Shown one piece after another: positions 13,359 through 46,293 of a stretch of DNA of 64,000 bases (its first letter is position 1; each line of letters opens with the position of its first letter). This DNA is from Candidatus Kaiserbacteria bacterium RIFCSPHIGHO2_02_FULL_49_34. GTDB taxonomy: Bacteria; Patescibacteriota; Minisyncoccia; Phycocordibacterales; UBA918. The notes beneath the pieces are model-generated. The model was given only the letters and a program-made list of their open reading frames with translations, had not been told where the DNA came from and searched no databases. Position numbers and translations under genes: made by a program. The stretch spans positions 22,914-86,913 of the forward strand of contig MFLE01000025.1 in NCBI GenBank assembly GCA_001781205.1, written 5' to 3'.

Positions 13359-13491
13359 GCAAGACCTCCGAAGAAGAAAGTTGTCAAAGAATGTTTTTTA
13401 GGGGGAACGAACTTGCCACATTATAAACACATTTCACAAGATTGTCAAGGGTTTCCCCCTCGAAATGCCCGAAAAACCAAAGGTGGAGGCA

Positions 13492-13520
13492 TTGACAAAA
13501 ACATATATAAACCGTATAAA
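13492..13520 (+). promoter_or_regulatory. sigma70-type promoter candidate upstream of gmd (TTGACA-17 nt-TATAAA)
   Basis: Perfect -35 TTGACA, a 17-nt spacer, then TATAAA ~70 nt upstream of the gmd ATG. AGGA RBS precedes the ATG. Confidence 0.5.
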
Positions 13521-13590
13521 TCTATCTAGAGCTCTCATTTCTTTTCATGAGTCACGAGAGATGTCCTGTTCATTTACAAAGGAATATATC

Positions 13591-14625
13591 ATGTCGAAGA
13601 TTGCACTCATTACCGGCATCACCGGTCAAGATGGTTCGTACCTTGCTGAGCTTTTGCTCGAGAAGGGCTACGAGGTCCACGGCATCATTCGCCGCACCAG
13701 CACCGAAGCGGGCAAGTGGCGCATTGCGCACCTTATCGAAAAGAAGGCTATTCATCTGCATTATGGTGATGTGTCCGACAGCCTCAGTGTCTACCGTATC
13801 GTTGCCGAGCTCCAGCCCGATGAGATTTACAATCTCGCGGCACAGAGCCACGTTCGCGATTCGTTCGACATGCCGCAGTACACCCTCTCGGTTGACGGCG
13901 GCGGCGCGCTGCATGTGCTCGAAGCGGTTCGCCTCGCAGGCCTCGCCAAGAAAACGCGCGTCTACCAAGCGTCGACGAGCGAAATTTTTGGCGAAGCACC
14001 TGCTCCGCAAAGCGAAACGACACCCTTCTGGCCTCGCAGCCCCTATGGCTGTGCAAAAGTCTATGCACATTACCTCTCACGGAACTACCGCGAGGCGTAC
14101 GGCATGTTCGTTTGCTCAGGCTTTCTCTTCAACCACGAAAGTGAGCGGCGCGGTGAACTTTTTGTGACCCGCACCATCACGCGTCACGCCGCACGCATCG
14201 CACTCGGTATCGACGACCCAATCCCCTTCAGCAACCCTTCCTCGCGTCGCGACTGGGGCCATGCGAAGGATTTCGTGGTCGCCATGTGGCTCATGCTGCA
14301 GCAAGAAACTCCCGACGACTTTGTTATCGCCACTGGCGAACAGCACAGCAATCGCGAGTTTACCGAACGAGTCTTTGCACTCCTCGGGATTCCTGTGGAG
14401 TGGCGTGATGTGGGTAAAGATGAAATTTGCATTCACGCCAATACCGGCGCGATTGTCGGCTACATCGAACCCTCACTCTACCGTCCGACGGATGTCACCA
14501 ACCTGCACGGCGACGCTACGAAAGCGCGCACCCTGCTCGGCTGGACGCCACACGTCACGTTCGATGAACTCGTTCGCGAAATGACATTCGCTGATCTCGA
14601 ACGTACCAAGAACGGCATCATCTAA
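13591..14625 (+). CDS. gmd: GDP-mannose 4,6-dehydratase
   Basis: MSKIALITGITGQDGSYLAELLLEKGYEVHGIIRR is nearly identical to the Gmd consensus N-terminus. Full-length SDR. Confidence 0.95.
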   Translation: MSKIALITGITGQDGSYLAELLLEKGYEVHGIIRRTSTEAGKWRIAHLIEKKAIHLHYGDVSDSLSVYRIVAELQPDEIYNLAAQSHVRDSFDMPQYTLSVDGGGALHVLEAVRLAGLAKKTRVYQASTSEIFGEAPAPQSETTPFWPRSPYGCAKVYAHYLSRNYREAYGMFVCSGFLFNHESERRGELFVTRTITRHAARIALGIDDPIPFSNPSSRRDWGHAKDFVVAMWLMLQQETPDDFVIATGEQHSNREFTERVFALLGIPVEWRDVGKDEICIHANTGAIVGYIEPSLYRPTDVTNLHGDATKARTLLGWTPHVTFDELVREMTFADLERTKNGII

Positions 14626-14674
14626 ACTGGACGGCGAGGTTCGCCTCGCCGCACTCTTTTCTAAGGAGTAATTC

Positions 14675-15619
14675 ATGAACAAAAATGCAAAGATTTTTGT
14701 CGCTGGGCACAACGGCCTCGTCGGCAGCGCCATCGTGCGCGAACTCGAAAGGCAAGGCTACACCGACATCTGCACAGCAACGCGCGACGAGCTCGACCTC
14801 ACGGACACCCATGAGGTCCTGAAATATTTTGCTACACAGAAACCAACTCACGTCTTTCTCGCCGCAGCAAAAGTTGGCGGCATTACTGCCAACAACACCT
14901 TCCCTGCTGACTTCATTCTGGACAACCTGCGGATTCAGACGAACGTCATCGATGCGAGTCGCTGGTTCGAGGTTGAAAAACTCCTCTTCCTCGGCTCGTC
15001 CTGCATCTATCCGAAGCTCTGCCCACAACCCATCAAGGAAGAATACCTGATGACGGGGCCGCTTGAGCCGACAAACGATGCCTATGCGATAGCAAAAATC
15101 GCCGGCATCAAAATGTGCGATGCCTACCGTGCGCAGTATGGATGTAATTTCATTTCTGCGATGCCTACCAATATCTATGGCAGAGGAGACAACTTCCATC
15201 CGACAAACAGCCATGCGATTCCGCAAATCATGCGCAAATTGCACGAAGCGAAAATCGCTGATGCCTTTGAAGTCCGCGGATTCGCCGACGGTTCTCCGCT
15301 GCGTGAATTTCTCTACGTCGACGACCTCGCGCGCGCGTGCTTGCATCTCATGCAGCACTACGATGAGCCCGGGCCGATTAACGTTGGTACCGGTATTGAC
15401 TACACCATGCGCGAAACCATCATGCTCATTGCGCAGATTGTCGACTACAAGGGAAACATCATCTTCGATGGCAATATCCCGAACGGCACTCCACGCAAGG
15501 TCCTCGACGTCTCCCGCATCCACGCCCTCGGCTGGCACCACGAAGAAATGCTCGAAGAAGGCCTCCGCAAAACCTACGACTGGTTCTGCAAAACCCCCGA
15601 CGCAAGCAAGCGCATGTAA
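14675..15619 (+). CDS. fcl: GDP-L-fucose synthase (GDP-4-keto-6-deoxymannose 3,5-epimerase/4-reductase)
   Basis: KIFVAGHNGLVGSAIVRELERQGY...FLAAAKVGGITANNTFPADFI...LFLGSSCIYPK...PTN..YAIAKIAGIKMC matches E. coli Fcl/WcaG along its length. Confidence 0.95.
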   Translation: MNKNAKIFVAGHNGLVGSAIVRELERQGYTDICTATRDELDLTDTHEVLKYFATQKPTHVFLAAAKVGGITANNTFPADFILDNLRIQTNVIDASRWFEVEKLLFLGSSCIYPKLCPQPIKEEYLMTGPLEPTNDAYAIAKIAGIKMCDAYRAQYGCNFISAMPTNIYGRGDNFHPTNSHAIPQIMRKLHEAKIADAFEVRGFADGSPLREFLYVDDLARACLHLMQHYDEPGPINVGTGIDYTMRETIMLIAQIVDYKGNIIFDGNIPNGTPRKVLDVSRIHALGWHHEEMLEEGLRKTYDWFCKTPDASKRM

Positions 15620-15699
15620 CTAAAATTCCTTTTGAACATTTTCAAACCCTCCCCGCCCACCGGGGAGTTTTCTTTTATATGTAGAGATCCAAGCAAAGA

Positions 15700-15742
15700 A
15701 AAACCGCCAGAGGTCTTGCGACATGGCGGTAGTATATTTTTT
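15700..15742. terminator. bidirectional rho-independent terminator (copy 1 of a duplicated ~48-bp module)
   Basis: accgcca...tggcggt stem with T-tracts on both sides. The same module recurs at 16385-16427. Confidence 0.6.
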
Positions 15743-16427: not shown

Positions 16428-16455
16428 TGTCTAAAATTTAGTTGAGTACACGACC

Positions 16456-16965: not shown

Positions 16966-18330
16966 ATGACTCGCATATTCCAGGCAATTATGTGTGGCGG
17001 TGAGGGTAAGCGCCTTTGGCCGCTTTCTCGCCGGAGCTTTCCGAAGTACTACGTGCCACTTGCTGATGGCGAATCGCTGTTTCAAAAGGCGTTTCGTCGC
17101 GCGCTGCGCACGTCGACTGTTGAGGATATCCTCCTCATTACCACCGACGTCAACAAACACAACGCGCTCAAGCAGGCTCGTGCCATCATCCCCGCCTTCC
17201 CGCAGGAAGGCCTCATCATCCGACCCGACGGCAAGGAAACCTTTGCCACCATGGCATGCGCCCTCGCAACCATGATCGACCGCAACGCATCCGCCGAATC
17301 GATCTTGGTGTGTGCACCGGCCGACCATGTCATTCACGATGTCGCTTCCTATGGTGACGTCCTGCACACTGCAGCGCTCGTTGCCCGTGACCACTACGTT
17401 GTCATCGGCATTCCACCCACTGAGCCGTCGAGCGATTTCGGCTACATCGAGTGCGACCTGCAAGAACCGCAGGTCGTCACCCGCTTCACCGAAAAGCCCG
17501 ACCGCGAAACCGCCGAGAGCTTCATCGCTTCCGGTAACTATCTCTGGAATGCTGGTTTTCACATCGGCAGCCTCGAGACGTTCATGCGCGAAATCCGCCT
17601 GAACGAACCCGCAGCTCACGACATCATCGCAGGAGGAATGCGCAGCGTTATCAAAAACTTTGACGCACTACCCGAGAAGTCCATCGACTACACCGTCGCG
17701 GAAAAAGCTTCCTCGATGCGTGTCGTCCGCGCAACGTTCGACTGGGACGACCTCGGCGACCTTGCGTCGTTTATCCCCGCACGCGGCAAAGAGCAACGCA
17801 TTGCTTCGTTCGATTCGTCGAATGTAAATGCATGCGTTGACGGCAAACTTGTTGTCGCCATCGGCGTAAGCGACCTCATCGTCGTTGATGGGCAAGACAC
17901 GCTGCTCGTGATCCACAAGGACGCCGTCAGTAAACTCTCGAAAGCCGTCGACACACTTCGTAAAGAAGGTCACCCCGAAGCCGACCACCACTTCCGTGGC
18001 TATCGCCCGTGGGGTATCTACGAAGTGCTCGAAGAAGGCACGGGATACAAGGTGAAGAAAATCACCGTCACCCCCGGCTGCGCAAGCTCGCTGCAATCGC
18101 ATAGCAAACGTGCAGAGCATTGGGTAGTCGTCTCAGGTATTGCGCACGTGGTGCTCGGTGGCGAACATCGTCTCCTGCACCCGAACGAAAGCCTGTACAT
18201 TCCCATCGGCGAGAAACACCGCATCGAAAACCCGAGCACGACACCGCTCGTACTCATTGAAGTACAAACCGGTTCATATCTCGGCGAGGACGACATTGTG
18301 CGGCACGAGGATAATTTCGGCCGTGCATAA
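16966..18330 (+). CDS. manC: mannose-1-phosphate guanylyltransferase / mannose-6-phosphate isomerase (type II PMI-GMP)
   Basis: N-terminal nucleotidyltransferase fold (IMCGGEGKRLWPLSRRSFPK). C-terminal cupin GYRPWGIYEVLEEG.GYKVKKITV.PG...SLQSHSKRAEHWVVVSG typical of ManC/CpsB. AAGGAG RBS. Confidence 0.9.
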   Translation: MTRIFQAIMCGGEGKRLWPLSRRSFPKYYVPLADGESLFQKAFRRALRTSTVEDILLITTDVNKHNALKQARAIIPAFPQEGLIIRPDGKETFATMACALATMIDRNASAESILVCAPADHVIHDVASYGDVLHTAALVARDHYVVIGIPPTEPSSDFGYIECDLQEPQVVTRFTEKPDRETAESFIASGNYLWNAGFHIGSLETFMREIRLNEPAAHDIIAGGMRSVIKNFDALPEKSIDYTVAEKASSMRVVRATFDWDDLGDLASFIPARGKEQRIASFDSSNVNACVDGKLVVAIGVSDLIVVDGQDTLLVIHKDAVSKLSKAVDTLRKEGHPEADHHFRGYRPWGIYEVLEEGTGYKVKKITVTPGCASSLQSHSKRAEHWVVVSGIAHVVLGGEHRLLHPNESLYIPIGEKHRIENPSTTPLVLIEVQTGSYLGEDDIVRHEDNFGRA

Positions 18331-31355: not shown

Positions 31356-32651
31356 ATGAATATCTTCGCTCGACTTGCTGCAAAGAGGCACGACACAGGA
31401 CTTCGTCGCTACACCAAAAATCTTGGCTGGATGTTTTTTGCGCGTATTGGCACCATGGCAATAGGACTCCTTGCCACTGCATATATTGCACGTAATCTCG
31501 GACCTACAAGTTATGGCGAACTAAGTTACGCAATCAGCTTTGTGATGCTTGTCGGGATGTTTGCATCACTCGGTATTGACCAGACCATCTCACGTGAACT
31601 GATTCTCTTTCCTGAGAAACGAAACGCCGTAATGGGCACAGCACTTTCCATGCGACTTGGCGCGGGGATTTTTGCAATGGTTCTCTGTATTCTTCTCGCC
31701 TATTTTATTTCTCCACACGACGTATCGCTTCTTCTTATTTTCATTATTAGCAGTACACTTGTTCTCAGCAGTTTCAGTCTTCTTGGGCAAGAATTTCAAG
31801 CACAGGTAGAATCAAAGTGGCCGTCAATAGCGTCAATTATAATTGTTACTATTTTAAACCTTTTCAAAATAGTAATTATCATGTTTGGTGGTGGCGTTCT
31901 CTATCTCGCAGCTATTCTTGTACTTGAGCCAATATTGTATGCAGGAAGCTATATTTACCTGCGCACAAAACGCTTTGGCGCACTACAAACACTCTCATTC
32001 GACCCCGTACTTGCTCGCCTCATTATTGCAGATGCTACTCCTCTCATTTTAGTTTCCGCATTCTCCACAATATACGCACGCATCGACCAGATATTTATAA
32101 AACACATGATAGACGCCACTTCTGTTGGTCTCTATGATGCCGCAGTACGACTCTCTGAAGTTTGGTATTTTGTGCCAGGCATTATTATTGCGGGACTCTT
32201 ACCTGCAATAGGCAACGCAAAGAAAACAAACGATATCCTGTATAGAAAGCGTATACAGAAACTATTTTTCTTTCTCTTTGCTGCCACACTTACCCTTGCG
32301 CTACTGACCAGTATTATTGCAAAACCTCTCGTAGCGATTGTATTTGGTGCTGCATTTGCAGGAGCAGCCCCCGTACTTATGCTCTATATCTGGAGCAATA
32401 TTGGCGCCGCCCTTACCCACATTACACACCAAATCCTACTCCTTGAGCGACTCCCGAAATACATCCTCTTCTCCTCATTTTTTGGCATGGCTGCCAACCT
32501 CATACTCTGCATCATGCTGATTCCAAAATACGGAATGCTCGGCGCAGCCTTTGGAAGCCTTGTTGCATATATACTACCTTTCCTTTCGCTGTTCCTACTC
32601 CCCAAAACTCGCACACTTCTTACTAACATTTTATTCGCACATAAACGCTGA
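31356..32651 (+). CDS. wzx: polysaccharide/O-antigen flippase (Wzx, MOP superfamily)
   Basis: 431 aa with ~12 predicted TM helices and a composition typical of Wzx. Located in a glycan locus. Ends with TGA. Confidence 0.75.
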   Translation: MNIFARLAAKRHDTGLRRYTKNLGWMFFARIGTMAIGLLATAYIARNLGPTSYGELSYAISFVMLVGMFASLGIDQTISRELILFPEKRNAVMGTALSMRLGAGIFAMVLCILLAYFISPHDVSLLLIFIISSTLVLSSFSLLGQEFQAQVESKWPSIASIIIVTILNLFKIVIIMFGGGVLYLAAILVLEPILYAGSYIYLRTKRFGALQTLSFDPVLARLIIADATPLILVSAFSTIYARIDQIFIKHMIDATSVGLYDAAVRLSEVWYFVPGIIIAGLLPAIGNAKKTNDILYRKRIQKLFFFLFAATLTLALLTSIIAKPLVAIVFGAAFAGAAPVLMLYIWSNIGAALTHITHQILLLERLPKYILFSSFFGMAANLILCIMLIPKYGMLGAAFGSLVAYILPFLSLFLLPKTRTLLTNILFAHKR

Positions 32652-34631: not shown

Positions 34632-35461
34632 AGCCTATAACTTTTATCCTCTTTGCCTACAATGAAGAAAAACGTATTGCATATGCGGTGCGGAGTTTTA
34701 TGAAGTACGGACCAGTACTTATTATGGATGGCGGCAGTACTGACAAGACTAAAGAGATTGCTGAGAAACTCGGTGCAACCTTTCTTTCACGCCCCACATC
34801 AAATGTTCCGCACGTCGAAACACAGCAAAACTACGATTTTATAAAGAAAAACACGAACACCCCCTGGATTTATTGGGGCTACGTCGACAATATTGCGCCA
34901 AAAACATTGGTTGAAAAGATGCTTGCGGTAGCAACCGAAAATTCTTGTAAACAAATCATTGCCCCGATGCACACCTATATGTGGGGTGCTACAAATCATA
35001 TTGCGCAAAAGTCACATATACCCGTTGCGTTCCATCGCGACTATATGGATTTTACACACACACCAATCCACAGCATGGGTCTTTTTACAGGGACTCCTGA
35101 GGAGGTCTGTGTACTCCCCTCGCTCGAGCGGTTTGCCATTCGTCATTTTAGCACATATGTTACCAGTAAATATGTTGTTGGCTACTTGCGCTATGCCGAA
35201 GAAGAAGCACTTCAAAAATTCAAAAACGGCGAAAGATTTTCAATCCTTAAGCTTTTTGCAGCAATGTTGCGCTATATGTGGATTTACCGTAGAAGCATGT
35301 ATAATGGCAGGGTTGGCATTATTGTTATGCTCAATGCAGCTTTTGGTAGGCTCATGACTTACGCACGTCTTTACGAGATTGAGCACAACATAACACTTCA
35401 GACCGCTGAAGAAAAATACGCTCTAGAAAAAGAAAAACTCCTCAATGCAAAATCTTCTTAA
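34628..35461 (+). CDS. glycosyltransferase, GT2-like
   Basis: ITFILFAYNEEKRIAYAVRSF...LIMDGGSTDKT resembles GT2 DxD-region. Start set by ATGA overlap. Confidence 0.6.
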   Translation: MKPITFILFAYNEEKRIAYAVRSFMKYGPVLIMDGGSTDKTKEIAEKLGATFLSRPTSNVPHVETQQNYDFIKKNTNTPWIYWGYVDNIAPKTLVEKMLAVATENSCKQIIAPMHTYMWGATNHIAQKSHIPVAFHRDYMDFTHTPIHSMGLFTGTPEEVCVLPSLERFAIRHFSTYVTSKYVVGYLRYAEEEALQKFKNGERFSILKLFAAMLRYMWIYRRSMYNGRVGIIVMLNAAFGRLMTYARLYEIEHNITLQTAEEKYALEKEKLLNAKSS

Positions 35462-36365
35462 TCATGTACGCACCATAACACCTCTTGCAATCCGGAAAAA
35501 AGTCGGGCCCATTTTAGGGTATCTCGCATATTGGTACCGGACACGTATTCGTGGTCCTGTATGGGAGCCCCGGGTGCTATCGATATCTGAGACAATACAG
35601 AAAATACGTGAGCAGAACCTCTCTGTGATTCGTTTTGGAGATGGCGAGCTCTCACTTATTGAACATTCGAATCTTGGTTTTCAGAAATATGATACCGTCC
35701 TTGCCAACCGTCTCTCTGAAATTCTTCGTGTCGAGGAAGAGAATCTCATGATATGCGTACCAAGTATTTTTGATCGGATAGAACACCTTACACCAATCGC
35801 TTTCTGGTTTGAAATTCACCACCTCTTCCGACACGGACATACATGGCGGAAATTTCTCATACCTGGTCGCACCTACGGTGATGCCTTTATGACTCGTCCA
35901 TATCTCACTTTTAAGAATAAACGAGATACCGGCACACTCTATACTGCATTGAAAGCGCTCTGGGAAAATACTGATGTAGTACTCATAGAAGGAACACAGA
36001 GCAGACTAGGGGTTGGCAATGACTTGTTTGCAGACTGTACCTCTGTTAAAAGAATACTTTGTCCACCCGAAAATGCTCATGCGTCACATGAAGCAATCCT
36101 TCACGAGGCAAACAAAGTTGGCAAAGAAAAGCTTATACTGCTTTCACTTGGACCAGCAGCAAAGCTTCTTGCATACGATTTATTCAAGCAAGGATATCGT
36201 GTTATCGATATCGGTCACGTCGATATGGAGTATGAAATGTTTTTACGAAACACCGACCGCATTGTACCCGTTCGTTATAAGTATTTTAATGAAATTAATG
36301 AACGAAATCCTGAGGAATGTGCCGATCCTGTGTACACCTCTCAAATCATCGCAACCATTCTATGA
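35445..36365 (+). CDS. DUF1792-type (GT-D fold) glycosyltransferase candidate
   Basis: N-terminal IRFGDGELSLIEH matches the recalled DUF1792/GT-D DXE signature. ~300 aa. ATGA overlap with downstream gene. Confidence 0.5.
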   Translation: MQNLLNHVRTITPLAIRKKVGPILGYLAYWYRTRIRGPVWEPRVLSISETIQKIREQNLSVIRFGDGELSLIEHSNLGFQKYDTVLANRLSEILRVEEENLMICVPSIFDRIEHLTPIAFWFEIHHLFRHGHTWRKFLIPGRTYGDAFMTRPYLTFKNKRDTGTLYTALKALWENTDVVLIEGTQSRLGVGNDLFADCTSVKRILCPPENAHASHEAILHEANKVGKEKLILLSLGPAAKLLAYDLFKQGYRVIDIGHVDMEYEMFLRNTDRIVPVRYKYFNEINERNPEECADPVYTSQIIATIL

Positions 36366-37423
36366 GAACTATCAACATCAAAATCTGTGGCTATGACCTA
36401 GATGACGAGTCTGTGCGTGATATATTTCTAGTGCGCGAACTTTCTAAACTTTACCATGTCACATTCTCTAATAAACCAGACTACGTTTTCTTCCATGAGG
36501 GCACGACGGAGTATTTAAACTACCCCGATGCAATTCGTATTTTCTACACTGGTGAGAATATCCATCCTAACTTCAATCTTTGTGATTATGCAATAAGTTT
36601 TGACCATCTTACTTTTGAAGACCGGCACTTTAGGCTACCCGTATTCCAAACAGCGGTCTTCTATAGAAAATGTGATGTTGAAAACGCAGGTGATCTTGAT
36701 TTCAAAACTCCGCGACCATTCACGAAAGAAGACCTTGCCAAAAAAGAAGGTTTTTGCAGTTTTGTGTATAATAATTATCTGGCAGATAACGCTCGTGGCG
36801 AATTTTTTGCAAAATTGTCTGCGTACAAGCAGGTTGACTCTGGTGGTAATTATCTCAATACCACAGGAACTGAACTCGTCAGCAAATTAGATTTCGACAG
36901 AAAACGAAAATTCGCCATTGCCTTTGAAAACTCTTCACGTAGTGGTTACACCACTGAAAAAATCCTCACCGCGTTCGCAGCAAATGCCCTCCCTATCTAT
37001 TACGGTGACCCTCGAATTACTGAAGTATTCAATCCTGAACGCTACATTAACTGCGCTGACTATCCCGATTTCGATGCTGTGGTTGCACGTGTTAAAGAAA
37101 TAGATGAAAACGACGAACTCTATCTCGAAATTATGAACAAGCCAGTCCTTATGCCAGGCGTTGACCTCGCAAAGGACCGTGAAGATTTCGCTGTATTTCT
37201 AAAACAAATTATCGACCAGCCTCTCACAACTGCCCGACGTAGAAAAATAAATCCCGTTCGTGCAATTACCTACGAACAAAACGAACGGCTCATTGCACGA
37301 TACCGGAATACAACACTACGCACAAAACAGACAATCGCGTATCTTTACGCACCACTTAAAAAAATTTCCTTCTTTGAAAAAGTAAAAATATTTCTTTTTA
37401 AAAAACTTTACGCAAAAAGTTAA
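36362..37423 (+). CDS. alpha-1,3(/4)-fucosyltransferase (GT10 family)
   Basis: KFAIAFENSSRSGYTTEKILTAFAANALPIYYGDPRITEVFNPERYIN is the diagnostic GT10 motif (FENS....Y.TEK........PI..G....). Compare H. pylori FutA CFENSQGYGYVTEKIIDAY...IPIYWG. Confidence 0.82.
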   Translation: MRTINIKICGYDLDDESVRDIFLVRELSKLYHVTFSNKPDYVFFHEGTTEYLNYPDAIRIFYTGENIHPNFNLCDYAISFDHLTFEDRHFRLPVFQTAVFYRKCDVENAGDLDFKTPRPFTKEDLAKKEGFCSFVYNNYLADNARGEFFAKLSAYKQVDSGGNYLNTTGTELVSKLDFDRKRKFAIAFENSSRSGYTTEKILTAFAANALPIYYGDPRITEVFNPERYINCADYPDFDAVVARVKEIDENDELYLEIMNKPVLMPGVDLAKDREDFAVFLKQIIDQPLTTARRRKINPVRAITYEQNERLIARYRNTTLRTKQTIAYLYAPLKKISFFEKVKIFLFKKLYAKS

Positions 37424-37433: not shown

Positions 37434-38309
37434 ATGATTACTATCTACACTCGCAGTCGAAGCTTCCTTACTAAGGAATTTTGGAAGTGGGTGGCACGGC
37501 GGTTGCTCAGAAAGTATTCGGGGCCGAATGCGGTGGAGGATAGTTTGTTGCGGGGGCTAAAAAAACTTAATGTCCCGTTCAAGCGCAATACGGAGCCCGC
37601 GCAAGGTGATGTAGCGTTGATTCTTTCTGGTGTCGAGGCACTCAGTGAAGCCATTGCTCTGAAGCAGATCGGGCGCATAAAAAAGATTATTGCCGGGCCA
37701 AATATTGTTGCTCACCCACGTGATGCTGACGGCGCAATGCTGAGCACAGATATCGACATCATACTTGTTCCTTCACAATGGGTTGCTGACTTATGGATAC
37801 ACGAAGCGCCTGAACTTGCTGAAAAAATCCGCGTGTGGCCTGCGGGTGTTCAACTATCGGCACCAAGCACTCGTGATGGCATCCCGATTATTTATGATAA
37901 GTTACGAAGCCCTGAGCTTGTTGCGCAGATACAGGATAGGATTAGCGCATGCCATATATTCACGTATGGTACATTCAAACAACAAGACTATCTAAGTGCC
38001 CTTGCAGATGCGCCCTATCTCGTATATCTCGCACAGTCTGAGAGCCAAGGACTTGCGCTCCAAGAAGCATGGGCGCATAATGTGCCGACGTTTGTGAATA
38101 AGAGTACTCGATGGGAATCAGCCGACACGTCGTGGGAAGCGCCACAGATTAATGCACCGTATCTCACTCCTGAACTTGGCGCGGTTTTTAACTCCATAGA
38201 TGAACTTACTGAACTTTTCTCACACACAACAAACCTCAATCCAAAAGAATATTGCGACGTACACCTTTCCGACGAAGCGAGCACCCGCATTCTTCTTAAT
38301 CTCCTATGA
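37434..38309 (+). CDS. putative GT-B-fold glycosyltransferase (family unclear)
   Basis: C-terminal ...YLAQSESQGLALQEAWAHNVPTF... resembles the E(x7)E / donor-binding region of GT-B transferases. Weak. Confidence 0.35.
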   Translation: MITIYTRSRSFLTKEFWKWVARRLLRKYSGPNAVEDSLLRGLKKLNVPFKRNTEPAQGDVALILSGVEALSEAIALKQIGRIKKIIAGPNIVAHPRDADGAMLSTDIDIILVPSQWVADLWIHEAPELAEKIRVWPAGVQLSAPSTRDGIPIIYDKLRSPELVAQIQDRISACHIFTYGTFKQQDYLSALADAPYLVYLAQSESQGLALQEAWAHNVPTFVNKSTRWESADTSWEAPQINAPYLTPELGAVFNSIDELTELFSHTTNLNPKEYCDVHLSDEASTRILLNLL

Positions 38310-39031
38310 AAAAAATAATTAAAAAAATACTTCGCTTGGTGCAGTTTCCATTTATACTGCCTGACTATCTTCGGTTTCGTAGGAGCATGCGGAACGATCG
38401 TTTTGAGATGCGTCTTCCTGATGTATATCCGTGCGTAAAGGACAAGACGATTCAGACCGGATTTGACCGGCATTATGTGTATCACACATCATGGGCGGCA
38501 CGGGTTCTTGCGGAGATGAAGCCTGAGAGACATGTCGATATTTCATCGTCGCTGTTCTTTGCGGGTATTGTATCTGCGTTTGTTCCTGTGGACTTTTATG
38601 ATTACCGTCCTGCTGATATTGCGCTTTCAGGACTTACGAGCAAGGCTGGCGATCTTATGAGCCTTCCTTTTGACGATGCGAGCGTTGTATCACTTTCATG
38701 TATGCATGTTGTCGAACACATCGGACTCGGCCGCTATGGCGACCCTATTGACCCTGATGGCGACATTAAGGCAGCGGAGGAACTCTCACGTATTCTCGCA
38801 AAAGATGGTTCGCTCCTCTTCGTTGTTCCGCTCGGCAAAGAGGCACTCATCGAATACAACGCACATCGTATTTATTCCTACGAACGAGTTCTTGAACTCT
38901 TCCCTACCCTCACCCTTAAAGAATTCACCCTCATACCCGAACATAGCGGTGACATGATTCGCGATGCAGACCCAAGCCTCGCACAGCATGAACACTATGC
39001 ATGTGGCTGCTTCCATTTTGTAAAGAAATAA
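38306..39031 (+). CDS. SAM-dependent methyltransferase-like protein (DUF268-like), candidate sugar O-methyltransferase
   Basis: SLSCMHVVEHIGLGRYGDPIDPDGD resembles the conserved core recalled for DUF268 methyltransferase-fold proteins found in LPS loci. ATGA overlap at start. Confidence 0.5.
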   Translation: MKKIIKKILRLVQFPFILPDYLRFRRSMRNDRFEMRLPDVYPCVKDKTIQTGFDRHYVYHTSWAARVLAEMKPERHVDISSSLFFAGIVSAFVPVDFYDYRPADIALSGLTSKAGDLMSLPFDDASVVSLSCMHVVEHIGLGRYGDPIDPDGDIKAAEELSRILAKDGSLLFVVPLGKEALIEYNAHRIYSYERVLELFPTLTLKEFTLIPEHSGDMIRDADPSLAQHEHYACGCFHFVKK

Positions 39032-39032: not shown

Positions 39033-39791
39033 ATGAACGCTAACACCCCTCTCGTTTCAATCATGATGACTTCGTACAATCGTGCGGGGTATATTGGTGA
39101 GGCTATTGAGAGTGTTTTAATGCAGACATATCAGAATTGGGAGCTGCTTGTGCTGGATGATGCTTCGACGGATGATACGGTTTCTATTGCGCAGGGTTTC
39201 GCGGAACAGGATGCGCGTGTTCGTGTCCTCCCTGCACCACAGAATCTTGGGATTACTGGTAATCGCAATCGTGGGTTTGCGCTGGCGCGAGGTGAGTATA
39301 TTGCGGTGCTTGATAGTGATGATATGTGGAGTAGTTCTGAGAAACTTGCGAAGCAGGTTGCGTTTTTAGAGTCGAATCCTGAACATATACTTGTTGGTAC
39401 GCAGGTGGATGTTATTGATGGTTTCTCAAATACTATCGGATCTTTCGCATACGAGACTGAGGATGCCGCGATTCGTGCAAAGCTCTTGCTCAGAAATCAA
39501 TTCACCCATTCCGCGATTCTTATGCGAAAAACTGCAGAAATCTACAATCCAGCGGTTCCTATTTGGGAAGATTACGACCTTATTCTCCGCCTCGGAACAC
39601 TCGGCAAGCTTGCAAACTTGCCTGAGCAGATGACACAGTATCGCAAGCATGCGAGTAATATCAGCAAAGAAAAACGCGCGCAGCACGCTCGCGTTCACCT
39701 AGATATTATTTGGGCACACAAAGACGCCTATCCACACTATTCCCTTGCCTGGATGAAGGCACAGCTTCGCATTTTGCGCGCGTATGTATAA
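39033..39791 (+). CDS. glycosyltransferase family 2
   Basis: VSIMMTSYNRAGYIGEAIESVLMQTYQNWELLVLDDASTDDT is a classic GT2 N-terminus. Confidence 0.85.
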   Translation: MNANTPLVSIMMTSYNRAGYIGEAIESVLMQTYQNWELLVLDDASTDDTVSIAQGFAEQDARVRVLPAPQNLGITGNRNRGFALARGEYIAVLDSDDMWSSSEKLAKQVAFLESNPEHILVGTQVDVIDGFSNTIGSFAYETEDAAIRAKLLLRNQFTHSAILMRKTAEIYNPAVPIWEDYDLILRLGTLGKLANLPEQMTQYRKHASNISKEKRAQHARVHLDIIWAHKDAYPHYSLAWMKAQLRILRAYV

Positions 39792-40064: not shown

Positions 40065-40778
40065 TTATCTGATAGCTCCTTCTAATGACTCTTTACTATA
40101 CTTGACCTTCAAATGACTGTCAATGCTTCTAATATTTTTCTCAAACATAATGATTTCATGGTCGCTATTCTTAACCACAAGATGCACGACGATACGGTCG
40201 CCAAATTCGGTTTTAAGTGCGTTGACGGTATCTTTGGCGGAGAAATACTGTGTAATGAATGTCTCTTTCATGATTCTTCGACCTTCCTGCTTTTCTCGTG
40301 CTTGTGTGAACTTCCATGCCTGGAGCGGATCTTGGTAGACATAATATACATAGACAGATCTGCCCCGTTTGAGTGAACGTTCTACATTTTGCTTTGCGGT
40401 AGCGTAATTAGAAAGTGTACCGTCAAGAAGAAAAGATTGTTTGTTCTTGAGGAGGCTCGCATGAAGCTCGTGTACCAATTTTGTGACAGGTAACTGAAAC
40501 ACATGTGCGTTACCGCCTCCATATCCGGGCATTCCTTTACGAAGTTCATCAGGATCAATACGAACTACGTTTATATCGCTTGTTTTAATCTGCTGAAGCA
40601 GACGCAAAGAGAATTCCGTCTTCCCTGCACCTGGGGAGCCCGCCATAAATACCGACACAGGGTTCGTGTCTGGCTTCACAACATCGAGCGATGCATATCG
40701 CTCGACAAGCTGCGATTTCTGCGTTTTGACGTATTCAATTGCAGCATCACATATTTTTTGTTCGTCAGGTGTGAGCAT
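40065..40778 (-). CDS. zeta-toxin-family P-loop kinase (PF06414-like)
   Basis: Walker A FMAGSPGAGKTEF at residue ~45 and overall ~240-aa size typical of zeta/PezT toxins (UDP-GlcNAc kinases). No upstream antitoxin gene; it follows galE with a 32-bp gap. Confidence 0.7.
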   Translation of the reverse strand: MLTPDEQKICDAAIEYVKTQKSQLVERYASLDVVKPDTNPVSVFMAGSPGAGKTEFSLRLLQQIKTSDINVVRIDPDELRKGMPGYGGGNAHVFQLPVTKLVHELHASLLKNKQSFLLDGTLSNYATAKQNVERSLKRGRSVYVYYVYQDPLQAWKFTQAREKQEGRRIMKETFITQYFSAKDTVNALKTEFGDRIVVHLVVKNSDHEIIMFEKNIRSIDSHLKVKYSKESLEGAIR

Positions 40779-40810: not shown

Positions 40811-41767
40811 CTATTTCGAGAAAACAATAAGTGTATCTTGCACCATGTCGTCGAGGGTTTTTGTGGGGTACCAGTTGAGTTCACTATTAGCTTTTGCGGG
40901 GCTAGCAATGACTGATGCAAGGTCGCCAGGGCGGCGTGGGCTTTCTTTGACAGTGAGCTTTTTGCCGGAGATACGCTCGAAGGCGTCTACAAGTTCTCGT
41001 ACTGAATACCCAGTGCCGGTACCAAGGTTGTAGGTGCCACTTTTTTCTGTTTCGAGAGCTTTGAGGTGTCCGTCGACAAGGTCAGTCAGATGGATATAAT
41101 CACGCATCGCTGTTCCGTCTTTTGTTAGGTAATCAGTACCGAAAATATGAAATGGCTCCCCTGTGGTTAAAGCCCCTGCCAGGAGCGGGAAGACATTTTG
41201 TGCATTATGCTCAGCGAAAGAAAGTCCTGCGTCGCCAGCGACATTGAAATAGCGCAGAATACTGTATTTTTGGATCTTCCCTGTTCGTGCAAAGTCTTTG
41301 ATTATCATTTCTGCGATAAGTTTGGTGCTACCGTAAACACTGACAGGTGCTGTTTTTGAGTCTTCGACGTAAAGATCATTAATGTCTTCTTGTGGCTCAT
41401 ATACTGCTGCGGTTGAGGAAAAAATGATTTCGGGAATGCTATGCTTTTCCATTGCTCCGAGTATATTGAGCGTGCCGACGACATTGTTCTGATAATACAA
41501 TGTGGGGTTCTGCATACTTTCACTCAATACTTTCTTTGCGGCGAAGTGAAAGACTGCATCAAATTGATGCGCGCCACACACAGCATCTAGCTCTGCAGGA
41601 TTCATAATATCACCCTGCGCGAATCCGACACTTTCTCCTATTTTTTCAGGCTGCCCTGTTGAGAGGTTGTCGAAAACAACAACAGCATGCCCTTGCTGCA
41701 CAAGCTGATTCACACATGCAGAGCCAATATATCCTGCTCCACCAATAACGAGAATGTTTTTCTTCAT
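40811..41767 (-). CDS. galE: UDP-glucose 4-epimerase
   Basis: MKKNILVIGGAGYIGSACVNQLVQQGHAVVVFDNLSTG..., YGSTK (YxxxK), ~318 aa. Confidence 0.9.
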   Translation of the reverse strand: MKKNILVIGGAGYIGSACVNQLVQQGHAVVVFDNLSTGQPEKIGESVGFAQGDIMNPAELDAVCGAHQFDAVFHFAAKKVLSESMQNPTLYYQNNVVGTLNILGAMEKHSIPEIIFSSTAAVYEPQEDINDLYVEDSKTAPVSVYGSTKLIAEMIIKDFARTGKIQKYSILRYFNVAGDAGLSFAEHNAQNVFPLLAGALTTGEPFHIFGTDYLTKDGTAMRDYIHLTDLVDGHLKALETEKSGTYNLGTGTGYSVRELVDAFERISGKKLTVKESPRRPGDLASVIASPAKANSELNWYPTKTLDDMVQDTLIVFSK

Positions 41768-42046
41768 GATTGTGAGTATAGCACGACACAAAGCATGTTG
41801 AAATCTGTGCGTTTTTACTTTAGCTTCTAGGTTCAGTGGTGTGTGCAAGATTTGCACACACCACCTCATCTTTTAATATATTTCTAATATGTTTTATATA
41901 ACAATTCTTTCCGCACAAAAGAAGGCCTTCCCTACCAAATACTCATCATTTCGGTGTTGCATAAATTTGTAAGCTCGTAATATGTATACTAAAAACGCCC
42001 AAAGCAAAAGTTTGCTCTGGGTGTTTTTAGTAGCAAGTGATGTTAG

Positions 42047-43497: not shown

Positions 43498-43667
43498 CTG
43501 TCATCCTCGGGATTTAGGAAACAAATGAGGAAGCCTTTCCGAATATTGTTTTCAAATACCCGGGGATCCATGGATTACGAGCAGTGCTTTTTATCCATGG
43601 ATCCCCGGGTATTTTAAAAATATACTCCGCTTTGCTACGTTATTTTTATGAATCCCGAGGATGACAG
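43498..43667. repeat. MITE-like palindromic element, type C
   Basis: 17-bp TIRs CTGTCATCCTCGGGATT / AATCCCGAGGATGACAG enclose an inner 19-bp inverted repeat TACCCGGGGATCCATGGAT…ATCCATGGATCCCCGGGTA. Confidence 0.7.
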
Positions 43668-43677
43668 TTCTGGCTGG

Positions 43678-44820
43678 TTACAGATATAACGCAAATGTTT
43701 TCTGGAGCATTTTTTCTTTGGTAAATATTCCGCTACGCATACGTGCATTGTGGGCATAGTGGGTACGAAGCTTTTCGTTGGTATGAAGGAGCAGACACGC
43801 ATCAGCAAGTGCGGAGGCATCACCGGATGAGACGAGAAGTCCCTCTTCGCGATGACGGATGATTTCAGGAACACCACCGACTGATGATGCAATAACCGGC
43901 ACACCTGCCGCACATGCTTCAAGAAGCACGTACGGGAATGCCTCTGTCCTTGATGGCAATACTACGAAAGAGAATGCTGTCAAATATTTTGACGCGTTCG
44001 GCACATTGCCAAGCAGAAAGACATTTTTTTCTAGTCCATACTTGTGTATGAGGTGCTCGAGATTTTTTCGCGCCTCTCCTTCGCCCATAATAATATGTCG
44101 CACATGAGGCTGTGCTTCTACGATGTCACGCATGGCGCGAATCATAACGTCATGCTGTTTCGTAGGATGGAGTTCTCCGATACTTACCGACCATAGGTCA
44201 TGCAGGTACGGCGAGAGCTCATGATATTGTATTGCGAGCTGTGTGCGCGCATCGTTCTTCGAAAGGTGTCCCGCCTCTTCGAGACCGTTATATACGAGCG
44301 TCATTTTGCGGGCGGTAAACGGCCAGTTAAGCTGGCGCTTAGTTACATCAGCAACAGCAATGGTTGTATGGGCAAGCATCACGGTGAGCCAATGGAAAAA
44401 CTTGAGAATACCTTTCTGCCAAAATGGACGTTTCTCATTAAATGCCCAGCCGTGTGCGGTAAATATAATGCGTGGCACGTTGCACAGCCTGCCCGCGAGT
44501 GCGCCCATAATGCCTGCTTTTGAAGAATTGATATGCAGCACATCGGGCTTTTCCTTTTTTAGGATTCTAAGAATCTCTTGAAATGCGCGAATTTCCTGGA
44601 GAAATCCGACATCGCGTGTAAGTGAACGAAGTGTCCGCACGGTAACTCCTGCATCACTGAGTCGCTCCACAAGTTCTCCTTCCCCACCAAGTGCAACCGC
44701 CACCGAAAAGCCTGCGTGCTGTGCGCCTGTTGCAAGATCATATACATAACGCTGTGCACCGCCCCAGTTTGACTTGGTAATAAGGTAGAGAATTTTTGTT
44801 GACGTCGTACCGTGTATCAT
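43678..44820 (-). CDS. glycosyltransferase family 4 (GT-B)
   Basis: ILYLITKSNWGGAQRYVYDLA…SRTEAFPYVLLEACAAGVPVIASSVGGVPEII is the GT4 EX7E region. The track's first M is a TTG; first ATG at 44820. Confidence 0.8.
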   Translation of the reverse strand: MIHGTTSTKILYLITKSNWGGAQRYVYDLATGAQHAGFSVAVALGGEGELVERLSDAGVTVRTLRSLTRDVGFLQEIRAFQEILRILKKEKPDVLHINSSKAGIMGALAGRLCNVPRIIFTAHGWAFNEKRPFWQKGILKFFHWLTVMLAHTTIAVADVTKRQLNWPFTARKMTLVYNGLEEAGHLSKNDARTQLAIQYHELSPYLHDLWSVSIGELHPTKQHDVMIRAMRDIVEAQPHVRHIIMGEGEARKNLEHLIHKYGLEKNVFLLGNVPNASKYLTAFSFVVLPSRTEAFPYVLLEACAAGVPVIASSVGGVPEIIRHREEGLLVSSGDASALADACLLLHTNEKLRTHYAHNARMRSGIFTKEKMLQKTFALYL

Positions 44821-44856
44821 ACCTAAGATAGTACCGTGCAATAGGGAAACTGTCTA

Positions 44857-46293
44857 ATGTCACACCCCACTCTTGCAATATTATGCCATTTTGCTACTAT
44901 TCTTAGTATTATGCGCGAACGAACACGAGAACTTGGACTTCTTATTATCGGTGATGTGTTCTGCTTTATTGCAGCACTCTACCTCACCCTCTCAGTACGA
45001 TACATTGAGCTCCCGAGCCAAGAGCTTTTGCGAGTCCATCTCGTGCCCTTTCTTATTTTCACCGGCTTGTGGATTCTTACCTTCTTTATTGCAGGACTCT
45101 ACGACAAACAAACTCGTATTGCACGCATGCGCATGATGGGACGCATTGTGTATGCACAATTCGTTAACATCCTCATTGCGCTCACGCTTTTCTTTGCGCT
45201 TCCCTTTGGTATTAGCCCAAAGACAAACCTCCTCATCTATCTCTTCGCTTCAATTGGTCTCATCTCCCTCTGGCGCGTCTACCTCTATCCTTGGCTTGAT
45301 GGTACACGACGCAAACGCATGCATGCCCTCCTTATCGCAAGTGGCACCGAGGCGCACGAACTCCTCCACGAAATAAATGCGAACAATCGCTTCGGCTATA
45401 AAATCGTTCACCACATCGACCCTGAAAATAGCATGCGCGATGTTCCTGGTGCGCCAGCACTCCAAAAAATGATTTCTCAGAAGAACATCGATCTCATTAT
45501 TGTCAACACATCGCTGCTTTACGCACAGCATACGCTCACCCGCCTCTACAGTGACCTCGCCGCACAAGGTCTTCCGCCTATGCGCGACTTCAAGGCAATC
45601 TACGAAGAAACGTTCGACCGTGTGCCGCTTGCAACTGTTGAGCGCGACTGGATTACCTACCACAGTGTCGACCGCGATTCATTCTCGTACATCATCGGCA
45701 AGCGCCTCATTGATATCATCGGTTCGAGCGTCTTACTTCTCGGTTTCGTTATCTTCCTTCCCTTCATTGCACTTGCTATCAAGCTCGATTCAAACGGTCC
45801 TGTCTTCATTACCCAAGAACGAATCGGCAAGAATGGCCGTCGTCTGAAGATTTGGAAGCTTCGCACCATGACCGCAAATGACAGTGCATCCGGAACCTTT
45901 GTTGATGACAAAGACATACAGGAAAAGCCAAAGAACGTCGTCACGCGCGTTGGCCGATACCTCCGCGCAACATCGCTTGACGAGGTCCCACAATGTTGGA
46001 ATATTATTCTCGGTGAGCTTTCTCTCATTGGCCCACGTAGCCACATCCTCGGCATCGCCGAACGTATGGCAAAGGAAATCCCCCATTACAAACTCCGCAC
46101 CGCCATCACCCCAGGCATCACGGGATGGGCACAAACCCACCAATTCTACGCCCCCGGGAACATCAGCCCCCAGTCGAACGAAGAAACAAGGCTCTGCTTC
46201 GCGTACGACCTCTACTACATCACCCACCGTTCGCTGTGGCTTGATATTGAGATAGCTCTGAGAACGATAAAGACCGTTATTGCGAGAATATAA
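44857..46293 (+). CDS. polyprenyl-phosphate glycosylphosphotransferase (WbaP/bacterial sugar transferase family)
   Basis: Multi-TM N-terminus plus C-terminal RLIDIIGSSVLLLGFVIFLPFIALAIKLDSNGPVFITQERIGKNGRRLKIWKLRTM...DEVPQ..NI..GELSLIGPR (PF02397 signature). Confidence 0.88.
   Translation: MSHPTLAILCHFATILSIMRERTRELGLLIIGDVFCFIAALYLTLSVRYIELPSQELLRVHLVPFLIFTGLWILTFFIAGLYDKQTRIARMRMMGRIVYAQFVNILIALTLFFALPFGISPKTNLLIYLFASIGLISLWRVYLYPWLDGTRRKRMHALLIASGTEAHELLHEINANNRFGYKIVHHIDPENSMRDVPGAPALQKMISQKNIDLIIVNTSLLYAQHTLTRLYSDLAAQGLPPMRDFKAIYEETFDRVPLATVERDWITYHSVDRDSFSYIIGKRLIDIIGSSVLLLGFVIFLPFIALAIKLDSNGPVFITQERIGKNGRRLKIWKLRTMTANDSASGTFVDDKDIQEKPKNVVTRVGRYLRATSLDEVPQCWNIILGELSLIGPRSHILGIAERMAKEIPHYKLRTAITPGITGWAQTHQFYAPGNISPQSNEETRLCFAYDLYYITHRSLWLDIEIALRTIKTVIARI

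Follow-up and report, generated by a model that had tools for sequence, protein, structure and literature searches.

Genomes of the candidate phyla radiation (CPR)/Patescibacteria are minimal, yet about 33 kb of the DNA considered here is devoted to one glycan, which raises the question of what sugars this locus supplies and where they end up. The DNA analysed (the window) is a stretch of 64,000 nucleotides from contig MFLE01000025.1 (positions 22,914 to 86,913) of Candidatus Kaiserbacteria bacterium RIFCSPHIGHO2_02_FULL_49_34, a member of the Parcubacteria within the Patescibacteria from the Rifle aquifer. Its island of about 32 genes (13465-46293) extends from gmd, starting at 13465, through an initiating transferase, ending at 46293. 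The reading preferred here, with a probability of about 0.68, is that of a Wzx-dependent surface-glycan locus supplying GDP-fucose, a dideoxyhexose and a yersiniose-type branched sugar, the last made with a donor-supplying aminotransferase and a ColD-type dehydrase.

Open reading frames (ORFs) between 9 and 50 kb of the window were listed, and each long, non-overlapping ORF was run against the Pfam and NCBIfam hidden Markov models (HMMs). The gene content was confirmed in place with HMM E-values far past chance, and the glycan island is genuine; nearly all gene calls of an earlier sequence-only reading, which had described a glycan island of about 33 kb, passed these tests, including Wzx, four GT2 glycosyltransferases, GT4, GT-D, DUF268, galE, an RmlC-like protein and two short-chain dehydrogenases/reductases (SDRs). 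Gmd, ManC, RfbF, RfbG, GalE and the GT-D protein score above curated equivalog cutoffs and the phosphoglycosyl transferase lies right at its threshold, whereas Fcl, the RfbH-like protein and the RmlC-like protein have the respective models as best matches yet stay below cutoff. Gene families, operon structure, conservation and active-site residues are matters of observation in what follows.

The probable sugar-branching cassette and its aminotransferase

The genes on which the question of the branched sugar turns are the following (ThDP, thiamine diphosphate; AspAT, aspartate aminotransferase; PMP, pyridoxamine 5'-phosphate):

22547..23464, minus strand: SDR, YerF/ErwF-like reductase, last gene of the branching operon (PF01370 53 bits)
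23474..25255, minus strand: YerE/JanthE-like ThDP-dependent carboligase (three ThDP domains; best solved relative JanthE, 8rph)
25261..26436, minus strand: class-I (AspAT-like) aminotransferase (PF00155 228 bits)
26440..27216, minus strand: rfbF, glucose-1-phosphate cytidylyltransferase (TIGR02623 371 bits, cutoff 300)
27213..28343, minus strand: rfbG, CDP-glucose 4,6-dehydratase (TIGR02622 439 bits, cutoff 278)
28496..29704, plus strand: RfbH/E1-like PMP-dependent 3-dehydrase (NF011936 350 bits, cutoff 423)

The minus-strand genes form an operon in the order rfbG-rfbF-aminotransferase-ThDP-SDR, in which rfbG and rfbF overlap by 4 nt, the following gaps measure 3 nt (rfbF-aminotransferase), 5 nt (aminotransferase-ThDP) and 9 nt (ThDP-SDR), and a terminator-like hairpin lies past the SDR at 22536-22519. 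RfbF and RfbG had been called as CDP-type enzymes, and set against dTDP-rhamnose-type enzymes they remain so: the dTDP-type models score far less on them, 35 and 115 bits against 371 and 439.

The ThDP enzyme, whose start was taken at 25255 (the ATG of the called gene, 593 aa) and not at that of a GTG-start ORF of 619 aa, had been described as acetolactate synthase-like. The ThDP family stands, but a likely sugar-branching role had been missed: among solved structures the protein is nearest to JanthE (8rph, 414 bits, 37% identity), ahead of PpYerE (258 bits) and of plant and bacterial acetohydroxyacid synthase (AHAS; about 250 bits), and its gene is clustered with CDP-sugar genes and followed by that of a YerF-like reductase. 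JanthE, YerE and ErwE are ThDP enzymes that transfer the acyl group of a 2-oxo acid onto a ketone, the substrate of YerE and ErwE being CDP-4-keto-3,6-dideoxyglucose, which leads to yersiniose and erwiniose (PMC9306805, PMC12247030, PMC12188165). By its kinship the window enzyme is predicted to be a carboligase of this YerE/JanthE-like kind, adding a 4-C-acyl branch to a sugar. It has the canonical GDG in the ThDP motif versus CDG in JanthE, and a Thr where JanthE has a Lys; mutation of that Lys to Ser gave JanthE higher activity (PMC12188165).

The top NCBIfam names, acetolactate synthase large subunit and aspartate aminotransferase, would instead make the ThDP enzyme and its upstream neighbour ordinary branched-chain amino-acid genes that merely lie within the island. 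This is highly improbable, and it was rejected on equivalog cutoffs and synteny: the ThDP enzyme misses all AHAS equivalog cutoffs by a wide margin (390 vs 538 bits and 375 vs 738 bits), a small subunit, ilvC and ilvD are all absent nearby, the linkage with rfbF, rfbG and the dehydrase gene holds strictly from phylum to phylum, and the closest characterised enzyme is JanthE.

The aminotransferase, absent from the sequence-only reading, aligns over its full length with the aromatic/aspartate aminotransferase (AroAT/AspAT) of P. horikoshii and retains the catalytic Lys (SK...MTGWR) and the C-terminal GYIRM Arg. In AspAT-type enzymes the C-terminal Arg binds the alpha-carboxylate, so the retention of both residues suits an enzyme whose substrate is a free amino acid or a 2-oxo acid. 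The best donors of JanthE in vitro are aliphatic 2-oxo acids of C4-C5 (PMC12247030), and transamination has been named as an alternative route to such donors (PMC9306805). The role favoured for the aminotransferase, which we infer by analogy, is to supply the 2-oxo-acid donor of the ThDP enzyme from an amino acid. It might, on the other hand, act after the ThDP enzyme and aminate the carbonyl of the new branch, giving a 4-C-(1-aminoalkyl)-branched dideoxyhexose; the gene is strictly operonic with that of the ThDP enzyme, and the acetyl branches that YerE-type enzymes introduce can be worked on further by reductases, transaminases or oxygenases (PMC9306805). This is rather unlikely, though more plausible than the other alternatives considered here, as the enzyme is a class-I protein of AspAT type with the alpha-carboxylate-binding Arg retained while sugar-nucleotide aminotransferases normally belong to the DegT family, a YerF-like SDR that would reduce the same carbonyl is always found downstream, and the aminotransferase precedes the ThDP enzyme in gene order.

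The reductase that ends the operon shares 37% identity over 302 aa with the SDR that comes right after JanthE in the locus of Janthinobacterium sp. HH01 (L014), and an SDR follows the ThDP gene in every locus examined. Two aquifer metagenome contigs (L001 and L002) are 100% identical to the window. In a near-identical strain contig (L003, ANAN16-1 scaffold_3384, 99.9% identity) the YerF-like SDR carries a deletion of about 38 bp, at 12142-12153 of that contig (23065-23114 of the window), and gene callers split both the SDR and the RfbH-like gene there; the cause is either a pseudogene peculiar to the strain or a mistake in the assembly.

The arrangement is conserved well beyond this strain. 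The aminotransferase lies directly upstream of the ThDP gene in all eight contexts examined, and the aminotransferase-ThDP-SDR trio occurs together with rfbF, rfbG and a DegT-family dehydrase in L007 (UBA3458), L011 (Nomurabacteria), L012, L013, L015 and one further place; L008 (Kaiserbacteria) has the same trio with rfbF and rfbG on a contig that stops short of the dehydrase. The nearest genome loci are those of another Kaiserbacteria metagenome-assembled genome (85% identity in the ThDP enzyme) and of the Patescibacteria lineage UBA3458 (64%). Identities across loci are 62-93% for the aminotransferase, 58-85% for the ThDP enzyme and 36-71% for the SDR, the aminotransferase being the best conserved of the three. 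In L007, L011 and L013 the genes wzx, fcl and gmd come right after the cassette (the L013 contig ends at fcl), and in L008, where no wzx was found, a Nudix gene, GT11 and manC stand before fcl and gmd; the pairing of fucose genes and branched-sugar cassette is thereby conserved in four loci (L007, L008, L011 and L013). L015 (GCA_005801785.1, 2776-9920) has the same gene order with a longer dehydrase of 438 aa. L012 (GCA_964622705.1, 6792-13914), with OEP and AprE genes nearby and probably from a Gram-negative organism, carries the aminotransferase-type cassette beside an E1 that retains its Fe-S cysteines, and therefore the presence of the aminotransferase and the loss of the Fe-S cluster are independent traits.

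Comparison with known branched-sugar clusters places the difference in the donor genes. The JanthE sequence was rebuilt from the PDB alignment, the native protein was located and its locus (L014) was opened: the order there is rfbF-rfbG-E1-JanthE-SDR, and behind the SDR come genes for a DmpF-like acetaldehyde dehydrogenase and for a DmpG-like aldolase, a pair that corresponds to the ErwI/ErwJ-type donor module (PMC9306805). The window shares the rfbF-rfbG-dehydrase-ThDP-SDR order, with homologous trailing SDRs, but the Janthinobacterium locus has a canonical Fe-S E1, DmpF/DmpG-like donor genes and the CDG motif, while the window has a dehydrase free of Fe-S ligands, an aminotransferase and the GDG motif. 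The window cassette thus has the core of the JanthE locus, together with another accessory gene. Calling it a JanthE-type cluster was rejected, as L014 has the aldolase pair and no aminotransferase. With the yersiniose A pathway of Yersinia pseudotuberculosis (DdhA/B, E1/E3, YerE, YerF) it has in common the CDP-glucose genes, the 3-dehydrase, the ThDP carboligase and the following NAD(P)H reductase (PMC9306805), but the Fe-S ligands are missing from its 3-dehydrase and no E3 is encoded nearby. The erwiniose and caryophyllose clusters (ErwE/F/I/J, MMAR_2331-2333) show the same clustering of genes within a surface-glycan locus. The donor module in the window is a class-I aminotransferase, which YerE clusters, using pyruvate, lack; that of ErwE-type clusters consists of an aldolase and an acetaldehyde dehydrogenase. 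The hosts of those clusters are Gram-negative bacteria or a mycobacterium, in contrast to a CPR bacterium here.

The RfbH-like dehydrase

The gene at 28496..29704 had been called rfbH. At the family level this holds, but the protein is not a canonical E1, since the Fe-S ligands are missing and no E3 lies nearby. Yersinia E1 (3bcx) matches it better, at 247 bits, than ColD does, at 192 bits, and the catalytic His that in both of these enzymes replaces the aminotransferase Lys is present (SFYGSH aligned to SFYPAH(220) of E1). The positions of the E1 [2Fe-2S] ligands Cys251/253/261 are all non-Cys, only the equivalent of Cys193 is retained, and the whole 245-265 stretch is free of Cys. Its score is 350 bits against the E1 equivalog cutoff of 423, and no E3-like gene (ferredoxin/FNR-type) was matched among the ORFs scanned across the window. 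The Cys motif is likewise lost in L007, L011 and L013 and is retained in the Fibrobacter locus L009, in L012 and in Janthinobacterium L014.

E1 and SpnQ require a [2Fe-2S] cluster plus a reductase, whereas ColD has no cluster, hydrolyses its intermediate and has its PMP recharged by glutamate (PMC8987622). Because the Fe-S ligands are gone, the His is kept and no E3-like ORF was found in the window, the RfbH-like enzyme probably uses ColD-type chemistry, and its substrate is probably CDP-linked. It resembles ColD in the PMP-type fold and in the lack of cluster ligands, and differs from it in its greater sequence similarity to E1 and in a gene that adjoins the CDP-glucose genes. Relatives were taken as the best 150 representatives of 50%-identity clusters from 1.8 billion proteins; 84 of these have the His and no Cys in the stretch, and 49 have the Cys motif. 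To judge from these alignments, the enzyme sits in a large uncharacterised cluster-free group.

An orthologue of ColD, acting on the GDP-4-keto-6-deoxymannose made by Gmd and leading to a GDP-colitose-type sugar, would also lack the Fe-S ligands (PMC8987622), and gmd is within the island; the dehydrase gene is moreover transcribed apart from rfbG-rfbF, alongside an epimerase and a reductase. In that case the ThDP enzyme would branch CDP-4-keto-6-deoxyglucose with its C3 hydroxyl retained. This is unlikely, and somewhat less probable than amination of the branch: the protein is closer to E1 than to ColD, it holds the same slot beside rfbG-rfbF as the canonical E1 in L012, L014 and L015, it remains next to the cassette in L007 and L013, two loci in which no RmlC/SDR pair was found, and the solved protein nearest to the epimerase, 5buv, is a CDP-sugar epimerase. 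The preferred assignment is hence still that of a cluster-free 3-dehydrase serving the CDP-sugar branch.

Fucose supply, glycan assembly and neighbouring genes

The second sugar of the island would be fucose, for which the following genes were found:

13465..14625, plus strand: gmd, GDP-mannose 4,6-dehydratase (TIGR01472 467 bits, cutoff 415; PF16363 425 bits)
14675..15619, plus strand: fcl, GDP-L-fucose synthase (NF047922 453 bits, top match, under the 500 cutoff)
16966..18330, plus strand: manC, bifunctional mannose-1-phosphate guanylyltransferase/mannose-6-phosphate isomerase (TIGR01479 380 bits, cutoff 373)
18401..19291, plus strand: GT11-family protein (alpha-1,2-fucosyltransferase family; PF01531 104 bits, cutoff 23.9)
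20539..21000, plus strand: Nudix hydrolase, Gmm/WcaH-like (PF00293 57 bits; NF011963 61 bits, cutoff 146)
36317..37423, plus strand: GT10-family protein (alpha-1,3/4-fucosyltransferase family; PF18025 90 bits, PF00852 65 bits)

ManC, Gmd and Fcl bear out the GDP-L-fucose supply proposed by the sequence-only reading, but not its completeness, as the window has no phosphomannomutase. The Nudix protein, earlier called a WcaH-type hydrolase, does have the GDP-mannose mannosyl hydrolase model (NF011963) as its top NCBIfam match; at 61 bits against 146 it stays under the family cutoff and is Gmm/WcaH-like. Both fucosyltransferase calls were placed by Pfam where they had been expected, GT11 after manC and GT10 inside the main glycosyltransferase operon. 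The GT11 match covers positions 2-286 of the 298 of PF01531, and no solved relative of this protein was found by sequence; GT10 has H. pylori FucT (2NZW, 134 bits) as nearest solved relative, and its aiaFENSsrsgYtTEK aligns with that enzyme and carries the FxxxFENSxxxxYxTEK motif. The linkage labels alpha-1,2 and alpha-1,3/4 are suggested by family membership. A 26-nt A/T-rich tandem duplication lies at the 3' end of the GT10 gene (37357-37405).

The two families had been paired as in H. pylori, which uses them for Lewis x/y epitopes. The families are indeed both present, in the alignment with H. pylori FucT the GT10 protein shares the FENS...YxTEK motif, and GalE is encoded, all of which would suit Lewis x/y-like epitopes made for host mimicry in the fashion of H. 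pylori. Such an outcome is improbable, somewhat more so than a ColD orthologue: family membership fixes neither acceptor nor linkage, no galactosyltransferase forming N-acetyllactosamine (LacNAc) and no GlcNAc module were identified, the organism comes from aquifer groundwater with no mammalian host, and the glycosyltransferase genes are free of the homopolymer tracts of phase-variable H. pylori genes. Phase variation of the H. pylori type was itself rejected, no homopolymers of at least 8 bases and no simple repeats being present in these genes. Compared with the GDP-fucose modules of colanic acid and O-antigen loci and with H. pylori-type fucosyltransferases, the island has ManC, Gmd, Fcl, a Gmm-like Nudix protein, GT10 and GT11 in common, but it lacks manB, its Nudix gene is below the Gmm cutoff, Wzy, Wzz and WaaL (within the window) and phase-variable tracts are missing, and its fucose genes are interleaved with unrelated insertions.

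Next to the dehydrase, and on the same strand, lies a pair of genes that may process the same keto sugar:

29819..30367, plus strand: RmlC-like 4-keto-sugar epimerase, a cupin (PF00908 173 bits; TIGR01221 146 bits, cutoff 156)
30371..31264, plus strand: SDR, probable 4-ketoreductase of the epimerised sugar (PF01370 95 bits)

The best solved relative of the epimerase is 5buv, entitled 'Putative epimerase', which we take to be WbcA, a CDP-sugar 3-epimerase. The SDR is kept after the RmlC-like gene in Nomurabacteria L011 (48% identity), and no such pair was seen in L007 or L013; the two genes are probably an add-on that yields an epimerised 6-deoxy- or 3,6-dideoxyhexose.

Assembly and export would be carried out by the products of the remaining glycan genes, with which two others are interspersed:

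31356..32651, plus strand: Wzx-type flippase (PF01943 83 bits; 11 hydrophobic segments)
32731-33645, plus strand: GT2 glycosyltransferase (PF00535 104 bits)
33660-34631, plus strand: GT2 glycosyltransferase (PF00535 80 bits)
34628-35461, plus strand: GT2 glycosyltransferase (PF00535 29 bits)
35445..36365, plus strand: GT-D fold glycosyltransferase, DUF1792/SP_1767 family (PF08759 272 bits; TIGR03728 296 bits, cutoff 291)
37434..38309, plus strand: compact GT-B-fold glycosyltransferase-like protein (no Pfam or NCBIfam match; AlphaFold2 model and Foldseek)
38306..39031, plus strand: DUF268-type S-adenosylmethionine methyltransferase-like protein (PF03269 56 bits; weak PF08241)
39033..39791, plus strand: GT2 glycosyltransferase (PF00535 128 bits)
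40065..40778, minus strand: Zeta_toxin/AAA_33-family kinase, last gene of the GT4-S41-galE string (PF06414 138 bits)
40811..41869, minus strand: galE, UDP-glucose 4-epimerase (TIGR01179 336 bits, cutoff 262)
42047-43402, minus strand: S41 (CtpA-like) PDZ protease, between GT4 and galE
43678..44841, minus strand: GT4 glycosyltransferase (PF00534 137 bits; PF13439 80 bits)
44857..46293, plus strand: large polyprenyl-phosphate phosphoglycosyl transferase, WbaP/WcaJ architecture (PF02397 177 bits; PF13727)

The ORF at 37434-38309 belongs to a family of about 200 clusters whose source names, among those shown, are all Patescibacteria except one labelled only 'bacterium'. Its AlphaFold2 model has a predicted local distance difference test score (pLDDT) of 94, and the top Foldseek matches of this model in the PDB are nearly all GT-B glycosyltransferases (E = 2e-9, TM-score 0.55-0.64), which makes it, on predicted structure, a candidate ninth glycosyltransferase of GT-B fold. 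For the initiating transferase the 'WbaP-type' label was right in architecture, but the protein fits the WcaJ (glucose-1-phosphate) model better, with 248 bits against 179 for that of WbaP; the TIGR03025 match is at 295.6 bits against a cutoff of 295.55, and the protein has five hydrophobic segments.

The absence of Wzy and Wzz noted earlier was upheld by a hydropathy/transmembrane scan of every ORF of 150 aa or more, in which no Wzy, Wzz, WaaL/PglL-type or LCP protein was recognised in the 64 kb. The only multi-transmembrane ORFs in the scan are Wzx, the phosphoglycosyl transferase, an M48 protease, a P-type ATPase and a DsbD-like protein, and within the island no ORF of this size beyond the first two has four or more transmembrane segments. 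Of a full Wzx/Wzy-dependent locus the window thus has the transferase and Wzx, and neither Wzy nor a chain-length regulator was found in it. In Nomurabacteria L011 a Wzy_C-plus-TPR protein adjoins the cluster, and for this reason the ligase or polymerase is probably encoded elsewhere in this genome. Lipopolysaccharide O-antigen is not expected in CPR bacteria, and since the host belongs to this group an O-antigen is unlikely as product; the earlier suggestion of a different product is sensible given this host and the presence in the window of two pilin-like genes and a repeat-rich surface protein. Decoration with phosphonate was considered and dropped, no phosphoenolpyruvate mutase being present.

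These two kinds of protein are, speculatively, candidate acceptors of the glycan. The type IV pilin-like genes (57204-57737 and 57843-58406, both on the minus strand, with the PF07963 N-terminal methylation motif) lie about 11 kb off the island. The predicted surface protein (10350-12509, minus strand, 682-719 aa, no Pfam match) adjoins it; besides a hydrophobic segment at the N-terminus and a transmembrane anchor at the C-terminus, it carries about ten copies of the 11-aa repeat YDYGSTGYNTT (11858-12174, 33-nt period) and three Ig-like repeats, each about 87 aa long (11146-11635, 261-nt period).

The edges of the island are formed by YkuD (12969-13358) and LigA (46631-48622), and the flanks hold housekeeping genes (PBP, YkuD, RF, EF-G, LigA, TruB, SMC, RNase III, NusB). 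About 5 kb of the 33 kb is without an evident role in glycan synthesis. In addition to the aminotransferase, the genes absent from the sequence-only reading include the Zeta-toxin-family kinase, the S41 protease, a split DUF3800 gene, an EEP-family gene, two paralogous ORFs without assigned family and the GT-B-like ORF at 37434-38309. The GC content is 0.52-0.54 in the sugar-nucleotide genes versus 0.42-0.44 in the glycosyltransferase operon (31-37 kb) and the insert at 19-21 kb. Relative to Kaiserbacteria L008, the window carries extra genes amid fcl, manC, GT11, the Nudix gene and the SDR, namely the two inverted paralogous ORFs, the split DUF3800/PDC-M04A gene and the EEP-family gene:

15813-16232, minus strand: paralogous ORF, 139 aa
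19459-19650, minus strand: ORF matching the C-terminal part (170-225) of the PADLOC candidate-defence model PDC-M04A (DUF3800-like)
19672-20214, minus strand: ORF matching the N-terminal part (7-141) of the same model
21071..21790, minus strand: Exo_endo_phos (EEP) family protein (PF03372 35 bits)
22007-22450, plus strand: paralogous ORF, 147 aa

The two PDC-M04A-like ORFs appear to be one gene, split or frameshifted, that was inserted between GT11 and Nudix, and no homologue was found in L008. The paralogues are 56% identical, stand inverted around manC-GT11-Nudix-EEP and are accompanied by inverted DNA repeats with up to 91% complementarity; a 56-nt direct repeat (96%; 15688-15743/16372-16427) brackets the first of them. 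Neither has a Pfam or PADLOC match, and the model of the 147-aa paralogue, based on an alignment of two sequences, has a pLDDT of 36. An EEP-family homologue, 44% identical, is found near the UBA3458 locus L007, and the family recurs beside related islands. Upstream of the Zeta-like kinase gene stands galE, and no adjacent small antitoxin ORF was seen; the kinase might phosphorylate a UDP-sugar or the glycan and not act as a toxin. PADLOC gave nothing meaningful for the kinase, the EEP gene or the paralogues.

Weighing the reading and what it may mean

Taken together, the genes suggest the following course of synthesis, in which the nucleotide specificity of the dehydrase, the identity of the donor and of the branch, the order of the glycan and its final acceptor are what we infer. 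A WbaP/WcaJ-type transferase would start an oligosaccharide on polyprenyl phosphate, nine glycosyltransferases (GT4, four GT2s, GT-D, GT10, GT11 and the compact GT-B protein) would extend it, the DUF268 methyltransferase may modify it, Wzx would flip it, and a polymerising or ligating enzyme encoded outside the island would complete the process. ManC, Gmd and Fcl would provide GDP-L-fucose as donor for GT10 and GT11, GalE would provide UDP-galactose, and RfbF and RfbG would form CDP-4-keto-6-deoxyglucose, from which the RfbH-like enzyme would remove the C3 hydroxyl with electrons from PMP, recharged by glutamate, so that an E3 reductase would be unneeded. The resulting CDP-4-keto-3,6-dideoxyhexose may have two fates. 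The RmlC-like epimerase and its SDR could convert it to an ascarylose- or colitose-like dideoxyhexose, and the ThDP carboligase could acylate C4, after which the YerF-like SDR would reduce the branch carbonyl to give a yersiniose-type 4-C-branched sugar. The aminotransferase would make the 2-oxo-acid donor from an amino acid, replacing the aldolase/acetaldehyde-dehydrogenase pair of the erwiniose and JanthE clusters.

Several points weigh against this account. The scores of fcl, rfbH, rmlC and the Nudix gene are all under curated equivalog cutoffs, the GT2 match at 34628-35461 is weak (29 bits), and phosphomannomutase (ManB) is missing from the window. The donor-supplying role of the aminotransferase is drawn from analogy and conserved carboxylate-binding residues, no specific amino acid can be named, and pyruvate as donor would need no such enzyme. 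Whether the dehydrase prefers CDP or GDP cannot be read from its sequence, and beyond the 64 kb there could be a gene for E3 or for a general ferredoxin reductase; the canonical-E1 loci L012 and L014 likewise have no E3 within 10 kb, so its absence nearby is weak evidence by itself. Literature searches found no published description of the aminotransferase-type cassette, but a genome-mining survey reportedly made by Krug et al. (2024), said to cover more than 200 YerE-like clusters (cited in PMC12247030), may already catalogue it. The same searches found no paper linking CPR, Patescibacteria or Parcubacteria to fucosyltransferases, GDP-fucose or these pathways.

In its working the island resembles a Wzx-dependent heteroglycan locus as well as the yersiniose and erwiniose pathways, but in three known families it has no full membership: lacking the cluster ligands, it differs from the canonical E1/E3 system; its other donor module sets it apart from the aldolase-type acyl-branched clusters; and the third family is that of the Wzy-dependent O-antigen loci. 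A broader possibility, put forward tentatively and considerably less probable than the account above, is that Parcubacteria share a signature glycan that combines fucose with an undescribed, amino-acid-derived 4-C-acyl-branched 3,6-dideoxyhexose and decorates pili or a repeat-rich protein for contact between episymbiont and host. The sugar would be made by a widespread cassette of six genes (RfbF, RfbG, an E1-family 3-dehydrase, a class-I aminotransferase, a JanthE/YerE-type carboligase and a YerF-like reductase), in which the 3-dehydrase of the parcubacterial versions would be E3-independent and Fe-S-free.

The cassette and, where the contig reaches, a core of wzx, fcl and gmd recur in UBA3458 (L007), Kaiserbacteria (L008), Nomurabacteria (L011) and L013, and the recurrence of this core in loci of the Parcubacteria/Patescibacteria type points to a surface structure important for the way they live. 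The Fe-S-free relatives of E1 account for 84 of the 150 best representatives, a large group that has not been studied, and 'RfbH' annotations would therefore mix two mechanisms. The cassette also gives a testable prediction for the side-chain origin of acyl-branched sugars, and may offer new ketone-accepting carboligases with a built-in donor supply, of a kind sought in biocatalysis.

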